This document shows, one piece after another, positions 23,296-64,000 of a stretch of DNA of 64,000 bases. Position 1 is the first letter of the stretch. The number at the start of each line of letters is the position of its first letter. The position numbers were made by a program, and so were the translations under genes. Origin of the DNA: an uncultured Acidobacteriota bacterium (GTDB lineage: Bacteria > Acidobacteriota > Vicinamibacteria > Fen-336). The notes beneath the pieces were generated by a model. That model saw only the letters and a program-made list of their open reading frames with translations. It had not been told where the DNA came from and made no database searches. The stretch spans positions 8,238 through 72,237 of the forward strand of contig CAVOYO010000019.1 in assembly GCA_963700695.1 (NCBI GenBank), in the 5' to 3' direction.

Positions 23296-23665
23296 CCCCG
23301 ATCATTCAATAACCCCCCTCCCTATCCCTCCCCACGTAGGGGGAGGGAAAGGCTTGAGATAGGCCATGGACACCCGCGTGTCCCCAGGGAAGGGACACGC
23401 GGGCGGGCCTGGGCCTGGTGGCCGGTCGCACCTGTTGATCGACCCCCGAGGGTATCCCTCCCCACGTAGGGGGCTCGGGGGACGCGACGTCGAGCTCGCG
23501 GGACGAGCGTCGACCCCGAGTGCAAGTCGCGACGCGCAGCGTCGCTTCCGACAGGCCGGAAATCCTTGGCATAGGCCACGTACACCCGCGTGTCCCCAGG
23601 GAAGGGACACGCGGGCGAGCCGAGGCCTGGTGCGCAGTTGCACTTGTTCATCGACCCCCCCCCGG
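23296..23665. repeat. Modular palindromic intergenic repeat, family 1, copy A (contains an empty IS target site)
   Basis: Modules ccctatccctccccacgtagggggaggg, 2x cccgcgtgtccccagggaagggacacgcggg and ggggacgcgacgtcgagc...gacgagcgtcgaccccgag recur across the window. Confidence 0.9.
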
Positions 23666-39005: not shown

Positions 39006-39145
39006 GATTGAGCAAGTGCGGGTGGTCACCAGGCCTAGGCTCGCCCGCGTGTCCCTTCCCTGGGGACACGCGGGTGTACGGGGCCTATCTCGGGCATTTC
39101 CCTCCCCTCCGTGGGGAGGGATAGGGTGGGGGGTCGATGAACGAT
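39006..39145. repeat. Family 1 repeat, copy D (inverted)
   Basis: caccaggcctaggctcgcccgcgtgtcccttccctggggacacgcggg...gtggggagggatagggtggggggtcgatgaacg. Confidence 0.88.
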
Positions 39146-45086: not shown

Positions 45087-45502
45087 CCCCCCGATCGTTC
45101 AATGACCCCCCACCCTATCCCTCCCCACGTAGGGGGAGGGGAAGGCTTGAGATAGGCCATGGACACACCGCGTGTCCTCAGGGAAAGGACACGCGGGCGA
45201 GCCTGGGCCTGGTGGCCAGCCGCACGTGGTCATCGAGCCCGCAGCCTGATCTTCCCCACGTAGGGGGCTCGGGGGACGCGACGTCGAGCTTGCGAGACGA
45301 GCGTCGACCCCGAGTGTAGGTTGCGACGCGCCAGCGTCGCCTCCTGCAGGCTGGCGAGCGCCGGGGGCCAGGGCTCCAGGGCCGCTCCTGAGCCCTCTAT
45401 CGTTCAATGACCCCCCTGCCTATCCCTCCCCACGTGGGGGGAGGGAAAGGCCTGAGATAGGTCCCGTGCGTCCGCATGTCCCCAGGGAAGGGACATGCGG
45501 AC
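45087..45502. repeat. Family 1 repeat, copy F (tandem, multi-module)
   Basis: Near copy of 23296-23555, followed by a second head module with palindrome variant tccgcatgtccccagggaagggacatgcgga. Confidence 0.9.
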
Positions 45503-57749: not shown

Positions 57750-57840
57750 GGCGGTGACACGGGTGGGCCCCGCAAGCGGGCTGCAGGCGTCGGACGCTGC
57801 CCCCGCCCGGGGCCCCGCCGCGTGTCGCTCCCTCCGGCTC

Positions 57841-59094
57841 ATGAGCTCCGGCGAGATCGGACGCCTCGTCCGCCAGATCCCCACCCAGTACCCCTTCGTC
57901 CTCGTGGACCGCATCGTGGAGCACGATCCGCGGGGGCGTCTGGTCGCGGCCAAGAACGTCAGCGGCACCGAGGACTTCTTCTCCGGCCATTTCCCCGGGC
58001 AGCCGGTCATGCCGGGCGTGCTCCTTCTCGAGTCGCTCGCCCAGGCGGCCGGGATCTGGCTGCTGAAGACGGCGCCCGACCCTCGGCAGGTCGAGGTCCG
58101 GGTGGTCGGCATCGACGACGCCAAGTTCCGGCGTCCCGTCGTCCCCGGCGACCACCTCCGACTCGAGGTGGAGCTCGTCCACCGTCGGGCCGAGCTCTGC
58201 CGCTTCCGGGGCGAGGTGAAGGTCGGGGACACGCGGGCCGCGGAGGCGCGGCTGCTCCTCCAGGTAGCGACACTGCCTCCGCCCGAGGTCGACCCCCTCG
58301 CCCGGGTGGCGCCGGGGGCGGTGCTGGAGCCCGGTGTCCGGGTGGGCCCCTTTTGCCTGGTCGGGCCGGAGGTGCGTCTTGGTCCCGGGACCGTTCTCGA
58401 ATCGAACGTCGTGATCGACGGGGACACCCGGGTGGGGGCGAGCAACCGGTTCTTCCCCTTCAGCTCGATCGGCCTCGTCCCGCAGGACTTGAAGTACCGT
58501 GGTGAGCCGTCGCGGGTAGAGATCGGCGACCGCAACATCTTCCGTGAGGGCAGCACGGTCCACCGGGGAACCGAGGGCGGAGGCGGCGTGACCCGCATCG
58601 GCTCGGACAACCTCTTCATGGCCCAGGCGCACGTGGCCCACGACTGCCAGGTGGGCAGCCACACCGTGTTCGCCAACTCGGCGACCCTTTCCGGCCACGT
58701 CGAGGTTCAGGACTACGCGGTCCTCGGCGGCTTCGCCGGGGTGCACCAGTTCTGCCGGGTCGGCACCCACGCCTTCATGGGCGGGGCCACGGTCGCCACC
58801 AAGGACGTCCTTCCCTTCTCGATGACCGTAGGGGATCGGGCGCGGCTCTACGGTCTGAACCTCGTGGGGCTGCGCCGGCGCGGTCTCTCCGCGAACGCGA
58901 TTGCCGCCTTGCGCCAGGCCTATCGCGTCCTGATGCGGCTGAACACCTCCGAGGCGATCCGCACGCTCGAGGCCGAGGGCCCGCACACCCCCGAGATCAC
59001 GACGCTCCTCGAGTTCATCCGGAGCGCGAAGCGGGGCGTCGTCCTCCGGCCCCGAAGCGGCGCGGCCGGGTCTGCAGAGGGCGAGGGGGCCTGA
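57841..59094 (+). CDS. lpxA: Fused 3-hydroxyacyl-ACP dehydratase FabZ / UDP-GlcNAc acyltransferase LpxA
   Basis: N-terminal YPFVLVD..FFSGHFPGQPVMPGVLLLE, in frame with hexapeptide LpxA (PQDLKY, IFREGSTVHRGT, AHVAHDC, VHQFCRVG). Confidence 0.9.
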   Translation: MSSGEIGRLVRQIPTQYPFVLVDRIVEHDPRGRLVAAKNVSGTEDFFSGHFPGQPVMPGVLLLESLAQAAGIWLLKTAPDPRQVEVRVVGIDDAKFRRPVVPGDHLRLEVELVHRRAELCRFRGEVKVGDTRAAEARLLLQVATLPPPEVDPLARVAPGAVLEPGVRVGPFCLVGPEVRLGPGTVLESNVVIDGDTRVGASNRFFPFSSIGLVPQDLKYRGEPSRVEIGDRNIFREGSTVHRGTEGGGGVTRIGSDNLFMAQAHVAHDCQVGSHTVFANSATLSGHVEVQDYAVLGGFAGVHQFCRVGTHAFMGGATVATKDVLPFSMTVGDRARLYGLNLVGLRRRGLSANAIAALRQAYRVLMRLNTSEAIRTLEAEGPHTPEITTLLEFIRSAKRGVVLRPRSGAAGSAEGEGA

Positions 59095-59939: not shown

Positions 59940-60874
59940 GCGAAGGAGCGGTTCGGGTGGGCGTCGTCGGGGTCGGAGCGCTCGGTCGCCATCACACCCG
60001 GGTCTGGGCCTCTTCGCCCGGGGCCCGCCTGGTGGGGGTTCACGACATCGACGCGGCCCGAGCCGAGGCGGTGGCGAAGGAGTTCGACTGTCCGGTCCAC
60101 GCCGAGTTGGACGCCCTTCTGGAGCAGGCGGAGGCGGTGTCGGTGGCCGTCCCGACCGTCGACCACCACCCGGTCGGGCGCCGGGCCCTCGAGAGGGGGT
60201 GCGACGTCCTCCTCGAGAAGCCGATGACCGCGACCCTGGCGGAGGCGGATGACCTCGTGGCCCTGGCCGAGGACAAGCGCGCGGTCCTGCAAATCGGGCA
60301 CATCGAGCGCTTCAACCCGGCCACCGACGTGCTCCTCGCGGCGGTGAACGCCCCCCGCTTCATCGAGGTGCACCGGCTGGGGTCGTTCTCTGCCCGGAGC
60401 CTGGATGTGGACGTGGTGCTCGATCTGATGATCCACGACCTCGACATCGTCCTCGCCCTCGACGGCTCCGAGCCGACCCAGATCGAGGCCGTCGGGGTCC
60501 CCGTCCTGACGCCCCGAGTGGACATCGCGAACGCCAGGGTCCGATTCGGGTCCGGGCTCATCGCCAACCTCACCGCCAGTCGCGTGTCGGTGGAGAAGGT
60601 CCGCAAGTTTCGGGTGTTTGCCCCCCGCACCTACGTCTCCGTCGACTTCAGCTCCCGGGAGGCGCAGGTGTTCCGCCTCGAGCCTGACGACGGGGGCCGT
60701 CCCCGGATCGCCTCCGAGAAACGGGGCGCCCCCGAGCAGGAGCCGCTCCGACGGCAGATCGAGGCCTTCCTCGGTGCCGTGCGGGATCGGACCCCCCCGA
60801 CCGTCCCGGGGCAGGACGGGCGCCGGGCCCTCGCCCTCGCCCACCAGATCCTGGCCCGAATGGCTGAGGGCTGA
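59936..60874 (+). CDS. Gfo/Idh/MocA oxidoreductase (GnnA-like)
   Basis: GVVGVGALGRHH, LLEKPM, GHIERFNP, DVVLDLMIHDLD; located in the lpx operon. Confidence 0.85.
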   Translation: MSEGAVRVGVVGVGALGRHHTRVWASSPGARLVGVHDIDAARAEAVAKEFDCPVHAELDALLEQAEAVSVAVPTVDHHPVGRRALERGCDVLLEKPMTATLAEADDLVALAEDKRAVLQIGHIERFNPATDVLLAAVNAPRFIEVHRLGSFSARSLDVDVVLDLMIHDLDIVLALDGSEPTQIEAVGVPVLTPRVDIANARVRFGSGLIANLTASRVSVEKVRKFRVFAPRTYVSVDFSSREAQVFRLEPDDGGRPRIASEKRGAPEQEPLRRQIEAFLGAVRDRTPPTVPGQDGRRALALAHQILARMAEG

Positions 60875-61229
60875 GGCTCACCGAAGCCGTTACGTATCCT
60901 TTGAGGTGCGTGACGACTTCGATGACGTACCGCTGCCCCACCGAGGACCACGACCTGGCCTGGACCCCCTTGGGTCGCTCAGGTCGCCCGCTCGCGGGGA
61001 CGCTCGTCTCGGGCGTCGGCCTCTTCAAAGGAAGCAGCGCCCTCGCTCGCTCGATTCGCCCGCACGGGCTAACGGACATATCGCCCAGCGAAGCATTCAC
61101 GATGCGGAGCTCGACGCCCCGCTTAGCGGGCGCCTTCGCGCCCAGGCTCGATCCTTGTCGTGGTCCCTTGCCCCTCCGACCAGGAGCGGCCGTATCCAGA
61201 CTCGGCGTGGCTGCCGAGGCCCCGGGGCG

Positions 61230-61440
61230 TGGGGGGTCGATGAACAGGTGCGGTTGGCCACCAGGCCTAGGCTCGCCCGCGTGTCCTCTCCTTGGGGACA
61301 CGCGGGTGTACGGGGCCTATCTTGGACCTCCCCGGCCTGTCGGAGGCGACGCTCGCGCGTCGCAACTTACACTCGGGGTCGACGCTCGTCTCGCAAGCTC
61401 GACTTCGCGTCCCCCAAGCCCCCTACGTGGGGAGGGTTAG
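61230..61440. repeat. Family 1 repeat, copy G (inverted), left part; interrupted by the IS
   Basis: ggggggtcgatgaacagg...cccgcgtgtcctctccttggggacacgcggg...cccctacgtggggagggttAG. Confidence 0.9.
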
Positions 61441-61535
61441 TCAAGATGGGATGACCGGCTCCGATCGCGAGTTCGTAGGTTACGCTCCGATCGGCTTGAC
61501 CTGTAGCGCAGAGCTACAAACGAAAGGAGCCGGTC

Positions 61536-62670
61536 ATGGACAAGCATATCCGACACGTCGGGTTTGATGTGGACTCGGAGAAGATCGTGGTGGCGGTGGC
61601 GGAGCCTGGGGGTGAGGTCCGGTCAGTGGGAGCGGTCCCCCACAGTCGTGAGTCGGTTCGGCGGCTCGTGAAGAAGCTGGGGCCGGCGAAGCGGCTGCGG
61701 GTCTGCTACGAGGCGGGTCCTCATGGCTATGGGCTGTACTGGCAGCTGAGGGAGCTCGGAGTGCACTGCGACGTGGTGGCCCCGACGCTGGTGCCGGTCA
61801 AGGCCGGGGATCGTGTGAAGACGAACCGGCGGGACGCGTTGAAGCTGGCGCGGAGCTACCGGAGCGGGGACCTGACGCCGGTGTGGGTACCGGACGCGGA
61901 GCAGGAGGCCCTCCGAGACCTGGTGCGGGCGCGTGAGGTGGCGAAGAAGGATCAGCTGCGGGCGCGGCACCGGCTGGGGAAGTTTCTGCTGCGCCGCGGG
62001 CTGAGGGCTGGGGCGGGGGTGAAGAACTGGACGACGACACACCTGGCCTGGGTGCGGACGCTGCGCTTCGAGCAGCCGGCGCAGGAGGCGACGTTTGTGG
62101 ATTACCTGCACGAGGTGGAGCACGCGGCGGCGAGGATCGAGCGGCTGGAGAGGGCGATCGACCAGGCGGTGGAGAGTCTCTCGGAGGACAGAAGGGCCCT
62201 GGTGGCGGGGCTGCAGGCGTTGCGGGGGATCAAGCAGATCACGGCGGCGACGATCGTGGCGGAGCTGGGCGTGGTGTCCCGCTTCGAGCGGCCGAAGCTG
62301 CTGATGGGCTACAGCGGCATGGTCTCGAGCGAGGACTCTACGGGCGAGCCGGATCCGGCGCTTTGGGATCACCAAGACGGGCAACGCCCACCTGAGGCGG
62401 GTCGGCGGTGAGGCGGCCTGGGCCTACCAGTACCGGCCAGCGATGTCGCCGGCTCTGAAGAAGCGGCAGGAAGGGCTGAGCGAAGAGGTCAAGGAGATCG
62501 CTTGGAGGGCCCAGCACCGGCTGTGCTCCCGGTACCGACGGCTGCTGGCGAGGGGCAAGCTCAAGCAGGAGGCGATCACGGCGGTGGGCCGGGAGCTTTG
62601 GGGTTTCATCTGGGCGGTCGGGATGCAGGTGGAGAAGGAGCAGCGGCTGCGGCGCGGGCGCGCCGCCTGA
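61536..62670 (+). CDS. IS110-family DEDD recombinase/transposase (one +1 indel at ~62349)
   Basis: VGFDVD, VCYEAG, VKTNRRDA, YSGMVSSEDSTG; removing one C gives ERIRRFGITKTGNAHLRR...AITAVGREL; aaggag RBS. Confidence 0.92.
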
Positions 62671-62721
62671 GACGAACGGGGAAACGCAACGTAGTCACAA
62701 GGAAAAGAGGACCGGGACCTT

Positions 62722-62931
62722 TGGAGAGGAGCAGGCGGTGGTCGAGGGGCCTACGGAATGGAGGATCCTCGTTCTCCCTATGTGGCAGGGCCAATACCCT
62801 GATCCACGAAGTTAGTCCGAGGCAGCTCCCGACGGATCACGACCATGACGGCGGGCCCCAGGCTCGATCCGCGAATATCAGAGTGATCAACCGTCGAAAC
62901 AGCCGCCTCGACCGCCTCCTCCTCCGCTCCA
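62722..62931 (+). ncRNA. Predicted bridge RNA/seekRNA of the IS1111-type element
   Basis: Enclosing stem 62722-62747 / 62906-62931; target loop 62760-62829 (ttctccctat, gaagttagtc); donor loop 62831-62895 (gaccatgacg, gaatatcaga); loop strands match the target and donor sequences. Confidence 0.8.
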
Positions 62932-62954
62932 GGGGACACCCCCTACCTCGGGGC

Positions 62955-62960
62955 TTGACA
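62955..62960 (+). promoter_or_regulatory. -35 box (TTGACA) of the circle-junction promoter
   Basis: On circularisation: TTGACA-cggtcatcccatatcagt (18 nt)-CAAGAT, upstream of the transposase. Confidence 0.6.
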
Positions 62961-62975
62961 CGGTCATCCCATATC

Positions 62976-63020
62976 AGGGAGGGGGGTTATTGAACGATCA
63001 GGGTGGGGGGTCGATGAATG
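62976..63020. repeat. Family 1 repeat, copy G, right part
   Basis: AGggaggggggttattgaacgatc is the reverse complement of 23300-23323 with one mismatch. Confidence 0.88.
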
Positions 63021-63155
63021 ATTGGGGCCGCCTCGCCCCGAGACCTCGTAGCTCCCCTTGTGGAGAAATGCAACATCTTGTGTAGGCTTCTTGATCCATC
63101 TCCGGGGCGGGTGCTACTTTATGGGGTCCAGGATGGCCGTGGAGGCGGGAACAGG

Positions 63156-64000
63156 GTGCAGCGAGTCAATCAGCGGCAAGGGTTCCTCCTCTCGGCGATC
63201 GTTCACCTGACCCTGCTGATGATAGTGCTGGCCCAGCCGCCATCGACGCGCGCGCCCGAGGACCTCTCCGAGCTCGAGAGGAGGGAGGTCGTGTTCCTTC
63301 CGCCGGCGGAGGTGCTGCGCCAGCTCTTCCCCGCGCCCGCGGCCCCGGCGCGATCCCGCCCGGCCGTTCCCACCCCACCGCCCCAGTCCCAGGACCCGAC
63401 CAAGAAGGACCGGATCAGCATCGGGCCCCCGTCCGAGCTGCGGAGCACGGGACCGCTCATCCTCAGGCGGGAGGACGACCTCACCAAGGTGCCCAAGGGG
63501 CAGCCCGAGCCGCCGCCGCGACCCGCCCCGACCCCCGTCGCGCCCACTCCGGGACCGGCGGTGGCCCAACGTGGGGGAGAGACTCCGGAGACAAGGGGTC
63601 GGGAAGGGCTGCGACTCCCCCCGGGGCTCCTCGGGCCGTCGCCCCCGCACGGGGATGAGGGGACACGCCGGCGCCCGGAGGCATCGGCTCGTCCGTCGAC
63701 GGAGCGGTGGACGAGGTGGCGCGCCGATCCCGGGACACGCGCCTGGGGCTGCCCACAGGGACCGGAGAGAACCAGTACGGGCTCCGCTTCGACCCTCAGG
63801 GGGCGGACTTCACCCTGTGGATGAACGACTTCAAGAACCAGGTCTACCGTAACTGGAACGTGCCCCAGGCCGTGTTCCTGGGGTACGGAGGGCCATGTCG
63901 ACTTCGAGTTCACCGTTGAGAGGGACGGATCGATGTCGGCGCTTCGGATGCTGAAGACGTCCGGGACGGATTCGCTGGATCGGGCGGCACGAAACGCGCT
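63156..64000 (+). CDS. TonB-family energy transducer (indels near 63690 and 63890; truncated at the window end)
   Basis: TM helix with SAIVH (SxxxH), Pro-rich linker, FDPQGADFTLWM..FKNQVYRNW.VP, ...KTSGTDSLDRAA. Confidence 0.75.

Follow-up and report, generated by a model that had tools for sequence, protein, structure and literature searches.

A probable bridge RNA downstream of an IS110-family transposase gene in an uncultured Acidobacteriota bacterium, with loops that covary with target and donor sequences

The window analysed here is a stretch of 64,000 nucleotides (nt) from an uncultured Acidobacteriota bacterium (assembly GCA_963700695.1, contig CAVOYO010000019.1), and towards its right-hand end lies an insertion sequence (IS) of the IS110 family. 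The element carries a transposase gene and, 3′ of it, a non-coding region in which positions 62722–62931 fold into the candidate guide RNA that is the subject of this report, and it is inserted into a dispersed repeat resembling repetitive extragenic palindromic (REP) sequences. The coordinates of these features are collected in Table 1.

Table 1. Features of the insertion sequence, its candidate guide RNA and its target repeat (positions within the window; guide assignments are predictions)
Feature	Position	Strand	Description
IS110-family insertion sequence, IS1111-like layout	61441–62975	+	1,535 bp, shared AG not counted; defined from empty sites and other copies
Left end	61441–61457	+	Extension TCAAG (5 nt, 61441–61445), then 12-bp subterminal inverted repeat 61446–61457
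Transposase gene	61536–62670	+	One extra base at ~62345; 291 aa, then frame shift (open reading frame listing)
Bridge/seek RNA gene (putative)	62722–62931	+	Outer stem, 62722–62752 with 62901–62931, encloses the target-binding and donor-binding units
Target loop 5′ strand, CUCCCUA	62774–62780	+	Complementary to the target + strand: T, AG core, and GGAG right of the insertion point
Target loop 3′ strand, GUUAG then UC	62811–62817	+	GUUAG (62811–62815) equals left flank GTT plus AG; can pair with the − strand
Donor loop 5′ strand, UGAC	62846–62849	+	Complementary to core G plus left-end TCA; short, partly conserved
Donor loop 3′ strand, AUAUCAG	62875–62881	+	Equals the last five right-end bases plus the AG core; invariant in 44 of 44 RNAs
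Right end	62955–62977	+	TTGACA 62955–62960, subterminal inverted repeat 62961–62972, ATC, AG core 62976–62977
Left half of REP-like target repeat	61419–61440	+	Hairpin CCCC..GGGG, GGGTT, AG core 61439–61440
Right half of REP-like target repeat	62976–62997	+	AG, then GGAGGGGGG...; from empty sites

The limits of the element are set by its other copies and by empty sites. A search of the same genome with positions 61400–63020 returned 51 matches, comprising nine near-full copies at 98–100% identity, one internal fragment of 501 nt (locus L010), and others of 34–46 nt that cover the flanks only; because most of the matches cover the flanks alone, we take the flanks to be part of a dispersed repeat. 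Most copies of the element share similarity with the window copy only from 61419 onwards, and at unoccupied sites the 22 nt of the left half run straight into the right half. The two flank halves, joined at a shared AG, are thus found uninterrupted elsewhere in the genome, and the ends that an initial annotation of this DNA had assumed are right. There is a single AG, assignable to neither target nor element, and no duplication at insertion. The ends and the guide loops are intact in eight of the nine copies, the remaining one (L009) diverging after the equivalent of position ~62900, where it runs into another repeat unit and loses the right end.

For comparisons beyond this genome, 390 relatives were confirmed in species-representative genomes and the best 80 of these were used, at 63–79% protein identity; the 80 loci are mostly from Acidobacteriota, with others from Steroidobacteraceae and Gemmatimonadales. 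The element ends are conserved in 72 homologous loci. The two 12-bp repeats pair with one another (as seen in L002, with identical sequence here), an arrangement common to most of the homologues, and with their extensions of TCAAG and ATC they agree with the subterminal inverted repeats of 7–17 bp that characterize IS1111 elements. Of the two non-coding ends the longer is the one 3′ of the transposase gene, as in the IS1111 group, with 305 nt beyond the stop codon (62671–62975) versus 95 nt ahead of the start (61441–61535), a layout described in PMC11187229 and PMC11208160. The IS1111-type placement of the RNA, 3′ of the gene, was already proposed in the initial annotation and agrees with this layout and with the repeats.

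The transposase is an IS110-family protein. An intact copy scores 214.3 bits against the NCBIfam model NF033542 ('IS110 family RNA-guided transposase'; cut-off 140) and matches Pfam PF01548 (E = 3.7e-14) and PF02371 (E = 5.7e-15), the N-terminal RuvC-like DEDD and C-terminal Tnp domains, which bears out the original description of the product as an IS110 recombinase. The extra base in the window copy is unique to it among the nine copies; the 377-aa open reading frame (ORF) is intact in at least five of the nine (L002, L004, L005, L007 and L009), while L006 and L008 carry other indels and L003 is without one. With its own transposase gene frameshifted and its ends and RNA intact, the window copy would therefore depend on intact copies elsewhere in the genome, and their presence makes unnecessary the repair of the indel for which the initial annotation had called.

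Within ...SSEDSTGSRIRR... an STG aligns with the SG of ISCro4, so that the C-terminal S/T-G motif is present; a TG variant of this motif is stated for IS1111-type proteins (PMC11187229). Also present are the catalytic motifs GFDVD and CYEAG and the second Asp of KT-x-RR-D-A. The first Asp of that motif, placed by alignment to ISCro4 as the third DEDD residue, is replaced by Asn (KTNRRDA; residue 97, codon 61824–61826) both here and in 119 of the 121 closest proteins, and 78 of the 80 homologous loci have KTDRRDA, with the Asp. We infer that this position is equivalent to D102 of IS621 from the residue list in PMC11208158, not from an alignment to IS621. The ISCro4 and IS621 structures show weak similarity to the transposase, IS621 being matched by phmmer with E = 1.2e-5 over about 100 residues.

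RNAfold of positions 62671–62960 yields a long closing stem and two units, each a stem, an internal loop and a hairpin, reproducing the fold first proposed for this region. Its energy is −131.7 kcal/mol, whereas shuffles average −108.1 (sd 5.5), which corresponds to z = −4.29; none of 200 shuffles is as stable. In an alignment of 44 distinct homologous RNAs the fold is kept with compensatory changes: RNAalifold gives 54 pairs, 24 of which change on both sides, and under the named structure 96.6% of the cells are paired, versus 31–43% when the partners are slid by one to three columns. None of 500 shuffles attains any of five structure measures. The compensatory changes sit mostly in the outer stem and the unit-1 hairpin, and the loop-closing stems never vary and are therefore uninformative either way. 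U-G pairs are invariant at alignment columns 68/97 and 135/163, and the outer stem often has G-U pairs, a pattern that fits a predicted RNA of the + strand. The strands of loop 1 are unpaired in the family consensus fold, and the letters and positions originally given for the four guide strands of the two loops are confirmed.

Because homologues have the same ends but different flanks, the covariation of loop 1 with its flanking target, which the initial annotation had proposed as a check, can be tested directly. We began with 81 loci (the 80 fetched loci and L002), 72 of which have recognisable ends (nine dropped); both loop strands were found by the search pattern in 70 of the 72, and 68 have at least 7 nt of flank on each side. 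These 68 loci reduce to 62 unique sites and 34 guide classes, from each of which one representative was taken. The reverse complement of the 5′ strand agrees with the right flank at positions +1 to +5 in 28, 33, 32, 31 and 20 of the 34 classes respectively, and at +6 and +7 the agreement is at background level (8/34 and 11/34). On the other side the 3′ strand agrees with the left flank at −1 in all 34 classes, the base there always being a T, at −2 in 32, and at −3 in 20. Over all of the cells, 144 of 170 match on the right (permutation mean 52) and 64 of 102 on the left (permutation mean 37); neither value is attained in any of 10,000 permutations. Loop 1 thus covaries with its flanks as proposed and is, by this comparison of sequences, the putative target-binding loop, and the matching in the 34 classes suggests that the family reads about N-N-T-AG-N-N-N-N-(N). 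The same cannot be said from the window copy alone, in which a core-spanning 7-mer and a 5-mer in the right order arise in 174 of 20,000 dinucleotide shuffles of the 210-nt RNA; since the target is G-rich, the support against chance from this copy is only moderate. It is the homologues that are decisive for reading these strands as guides.

A comparison of loop 2 with the element ends requires more distant relatives. In the close family both loop 2 and the ends are invariant, which leaves no room for donor covariation, and for this reason we used plasmid-borne relatives at 43–50% identity, which have the same RNA architecture and different ends. The 3′ strand of loop 2 reproduces each of the right-end types ATAAG, ATGAG and ATCGG, and among 11 lineages (below 50% protein identity) there are nine in which this strand and the right end have 7 nt or more in common, against a permutation mean of 3.5 (nine is attained in 2 of 20,000 permutations). 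The two misses are L106, which has AA for AG, and L107, with one mismatch and uncertain ends. For the 5′ strand, the reverse complement of left-end bases 1–3 is found within its last 8 nt in seven of the 11 lineages (permutation mean 2.0; again attained in 2 of 20,000), the corresponding left-end and RNA triplets being TCA/UGA, ACA/UGU, ACC/GGU (in three lineages), TTA/UAA and ATG/CAU. These counts omit L101 (ISEc45), L110 (ISSso6), L112, L113 and L114, whose ends were unresolved, and L105, a duplicate of L102; the extraction rows of L022, L070 and L090 were not used either, nor was that of L097, where the match is located in a stem.

By these covariations loop 2 is the predicted donor-binding loop. 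The match of ATATCAG to the right end and core, noted at the outset in the window copy, arises in 1,184 of 20,000 dinucleotide shuffles of its 210-nt RNA and is sustained by the nine lineages in which it follows the right end. That of TGAC fares differently: a 4-mer match of this kind occurs in 18,334 of 20,000 shuffles and on its own it carries no weight, and the part that stands is that the triplet follows the left end in seven lineages.

Two other candidates for donor pairing were considered and rejected. Most of the close relatives have a strand GAUUAU, for which we compared pairing with left-end bases 2–7, with the ATGG of the inverted repeat, and with the core plus TC; nothing varies there, and therefore no register could be chosen. 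In this copy the left end begins with bases complementary to the CTTGAC of the right end; CTTGAC was rejected as a guide because it is constant in L103 although the left end of that element differs.

The UC at 62816–62817, directly after the target guide, repeats the dinucleotide with which the left end begins, and it is invariant or nearly so in the aligned close RNAs. Among nine lineages the first of the two bases follows left-end base 1 in all nine (U with T, A with A) and the second follows base 2 in six, as read by eye. We therefore regard UC as a candidate handshake guide, by analogy with the position and logic of that of IS621 (PMC11208158), transferred here to a mirrored strand arrangement.

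We also note that in L106 (from an Alicyclobacillus plasmid), L108, L109 and L111 the core-pairing bases of the target loop 5′ strand are UU, not CU, and that in L106 the right junction has AA and the left junction AG. Core pairing may tolerate a wobble or a mismatched core.

The REP-like repeat is the sole insertion site of the element. It consists of a G-rich hairpin followed by (A/T)T-AG-GG(A/T)GGGGGG and TCATTGAA-like tails, and is present in about 100 copies genome-wide. When the flanks are joined at the shared AG they make a 42-nt site, of which there are 81 genome copies within eight substitutions, and a 23-nt core pattern is found at 103 genome sites within two substitutions. Four copies lie inside the window, at 23313–23335 (−), 39111–39133 (+), 45106–45128 (−) and 45411–45433 (−), where none is expected by chance. 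Within the genome, occupancy of the repeat follows the match to the guide: four sites with a perfect 9-mer match are occupied and three are empty, compared with four occupied and 43 empty among those with one mismatch, and none occupied and 55 empty among those with two (perfect sites versus the rest, Fisher p = 4e-4).

Some further variation is seen around the repeat and in the guide. Copies of the repeat are often in arrays with other modules, in the manner of bacterial interspersed mosaic elements (BIME-like). A module of about 85 nt that flanks the window copy on its left (61323–61418) is absent from five of the nine copies, and contigs of relatives in RNA libraries skip 61323–61418 as well, which indicates that the repeat arrays beside the element are modular and polymorphic. 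In L005 and L008 the target guide has a U-to-A change (at the equivalent of 62775, opposite +3) that would suit pairing with T, the commoner allele of the repeat at this position; L005 is at a T-allele site and L008 is not, and the same change is present in a metatranscriptome contig of a relative. This may represent a small natural step of retargeting.

The joined ends also contain what looks like a promoter. Once the ends are joined, 18 nt separate the TTGACA of the right end from the CAAGAT of the left end (61441–61447 region), and in all of 38 distinct inferred circle junctions of homologues a TTGAC lies 16–18 nt from a CAnnAT hexamer. It seems likely that TTGACA is the −35 box of a sigma-70-like promoter that is formed only in the circular form; transposase mRNA and a long seekRNA are said to be co-transcribed from such a junction promoter (PMC11187229). 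Four metatranscriptome runs hold small shares of the element, as contigs only. Library X19 has one 151-nt contig identical to 62734–62884, X20 has one over 62765–62897 that then diverges, and X17 and X18 have contigs of a 90–99% relative over most of the element. These contigs over the RNA region are a hint of expression, showing neither strand, ends nor level and possibly derived from DNA, and gaps in X19 and X20 are not evidence.

We conclude, with a probability of about 0.9, that 62722–62931 encodes the bridge RNA, or seekRNA, of an insertion sequence that belongs to the IS110 family and is organised in the IS1111 manner. The interpretation given in the initial annotation is thereby supported, the tests applied here from among those it had listed as able to refute it having all turned out in its favour. 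The boundaries of the element, the structure of the RNA, the covariation of its loops with target and donor, and the family of the protein are direct observations. There are nonetheless several points that weigh against this conclusion. With 7 + 5 nt against the target and 7 + 4 nt against the donor the guides are short, and in this copy the minimum free energy fold partly pairs the guide strands with each other, the mean probability of being unpaired being 0.44 and 0.58 for the loop 1 strands, 0.70 for ATATCAG, and 0.27 for TGAC, which is thus predicted to be paired. The inserted segment that holds TGAC is missing from 37 of the 44 close RNAs, so that the 5′-strand guide is short and apparently dispensable; four of the 11 lineages are without a left-end complement in this strand, and the donor test rests on those 11 self-selected clean lineages, seven of them from plasmids and one (L107) with uncertain ends. 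Some copies occupy sites with mismatches to their own guides (L004 at +3, L008 at +3 and −2, and L007 and L009 at −2), and the third residue of the catalytic tetrad is an Asn in the element's clade. A search of Rfam with 60800–64000 (E ≤ 10) found no relevant family, its matches to snoR9 and RsmY being at chance level; a promoter and terminator scan of 61300–63100 found neither a sigma-70-like promoter nor an intrinsic terminator in the linear copy, and the RNA-library contigs, with their possible DNA origin, are not direct proof.

Three other explanations have to be weighed. It is conceivable, if unlikely, that the RNA guides the choice of target only, with the protein reading the ends via the subterminal inverted repeats, unit 2 serving as a protein-binding scaffold, and ATATCAG being a chance likeness. 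The invariance of loop 2 and of the ends in the close family, which shows no covariation, would be accounted for in this way, as would the lack of a left-end complement in the 5′ strand of most close RNAs, and an 82-nt ISEc11 seekRNA with target matches alone is reported to have sufficed (PMC11187229). Against it, the 3′ strand varies along with the right end in nine of 11 lineages below 50% identity (2 of 20,000 permutations), and the 5′ strand follows left-end bases 1–3 in seven. We consider it very improbable that the structure acts as a DNA element or in the 3′ untranslated region of the mRNA, whether as a transposase-binding hairpin, an mRNA stabiliser or an attenuator, with the loop matches as by-products. 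The scan revealed no independent promoter or terminator, and the statistics from this copy alone are moderate, both of which would suit such a role, but a stabiliser or a protein site does not predict that loop 1 varies with the target in 34 classes while the stems are fixed, and the G-U pairs, some invariant and others frequent, speak for a + strand RNA.

The remaining explanation, that the element is a decayed relic whose RNA is no longer functional in this genome, is scarcely credible. Decay is certainly in evidence, as the window copy is frameshifted, L006 and L008 have indels, L009 has lost its right end, and L010 is a fragment of 501 nt; yet at least five of the nine copies keep the 377-aa ORF, copies at different loci are 98–100% identical, and all but one retain their ends and guide loops.

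If the RNA is a bridge RNA, a mechanism can be proposed by analogy with IS621 and ISEc11, in which transcription, protein binding and catalysis would proceed as follows. Excision of the element as a circle would join the right and left ends at the shared AG and so make the junction promoter, which would drive the transposase gene and the downstream RNA. The transposase would bind the RNA of about 210 nt, loop 1 of which would read both strands of the target at the AG, its 5′ strand pairing with T-AG-GGAG of the + strand and its 3′ strand with the − strand at GTT-AG. Loop 2 would read the circle junction, the 3′ strand with the − strand at ATATC-AG and the short 5′ strand with G-TCA of the + strand. 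Strand exchange would take place at the AG, after which the UC following the target guide could pair with the incoming left end in a handshake; the outcome would be a precise and oriented insertion into the REP-like repeat without duplication.

The system resembles that of IS621, of the IS110 group (Durrant et al. 2024, PMC11208160; Hiraizumi et al. 2024, PMC11208158), in several respects. Both RNAs have two internal loops, one for target and one for donor; in each loop the DNA strand that is read changes from one side of a 2-bp core to the other, and both loop strands include the core; the dinucleotide following the target guide matches the donor in a handshake-like manner; and the proteins have the same domains. 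The differences are that the RNA lies downstream of the gene here and upstream in IS621, that the transposase strand has AG as its core, with mirrored roles for the strands, that 12-bp subterminal inverted repeats are present, the guides are shorter and the units lie inside a long closing stem, and that the protein is only distantly related.

Likenesses to the IS1111 seekRNAs of ISEc11, ISKpn4 and ISPa11 (Siddiquee et al. 2024, PMC11187229) include the downstream non-coding region and the subterminal inverted repeats, a top-strand complement that comes first, on the 5′ side, and a bottom-strand complement that comes after it, with matches that overlap at the insertion point, and a promoter at the circle junction; REP sequences are moreover the target of ISPa11 as well (PMC11187229). 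The order of strands is the reversed order reported for IS1111 seekRNAs (PMC11187229) and mirrors the IS621 rule on the opposite strand (PMC11208160). In contrast to the seekRNAs as described, a second loop with donor complementarity is evident here, and the transposase has 377 aa compared with the 330–350 aa stated for the family (PMC11187229). ISPpu9 of Pseudomonas putida, likened to this element by description only, differs in that it is reported to have no junction promoter and to have the small RNAs Asr9 and Ssr9 (PMC12288879).

The closest named elements that we found are ISEc45 and ISSso6, whose transposases are 45.8% and 43.3% identical over 95–96% of the query, and in the ISEc45 locus, too, the gene is followed by a non-coding stretch. 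Literature searches found no description of the RNAs of these two, only resistance-genomics and IS-survey papers, and a search joining IS1111 with Acidobacteria gave no paper holding IS1111 among those listed. Nor was a paper on the present element or its RNA among the matches listed, although the supplements of PMC11208160 and PMC11187229 may list RNAs or targets of relatives. The initial annotation was correct in regarding the class of mechanism as known, it having first been described in 2024; it had further placed the element in a poorly sampled lineage, which is contradicted by the 390 relatives in genomes, by the related proteins that reach E ≤ 1e-20, which number at least 8,000 and of which the best 120 are all at least 77% identical, and by the 925 plasmid records that match. 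The family is well sampled in sequence data yet not studied, and it is the element that is new, not the class of mechanism.

Elsewhere in the window, a 446-aa ORF at 57754–59094 may encode a FabZ-LpxA fusion, to judge by motifs in its translation.

The replacement of a catalytic Asp raises a further suggestion, which we regard as doubtful at present, that the closest 120 proteins (at least 77% identical) make up a branch of RNA-guided recombinases that has gone unstudied and that naturally has an Asn in place of the third DEDD carboxylate. The Asn clade looks recently mobile, with nine copies at 98–100% identity, among which the guide has two alleles corresponding to the two common alleles of the target. 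Were the suggestion correct, the metal-binding site of bridge recombinases would tolerate, or be adapted to, a D-E-N-D arrangement, and this RNA, compact, with its two internal-loop units and its very short guides, would represent a separate natural variant and possibly a tool.

No new mechanism is revealed by this element. It is, rather, a clean natural example of RNA-guided recombination, in which four guide strands, a candidate handshake, a junction promoter and a target repeat can all be read from the sequence, and among its relatives nature has reprogrammed the target guide into 34 versions and provided at least four types of donor end. Less work has been done on the IS1111-like branch than on IS621, and how the donor is recognised there is still unclear according to the literature cited above; these relatives form a dataset that is useful for choosing new bridge recombinases or for deriving the rules of guide length in this branch.

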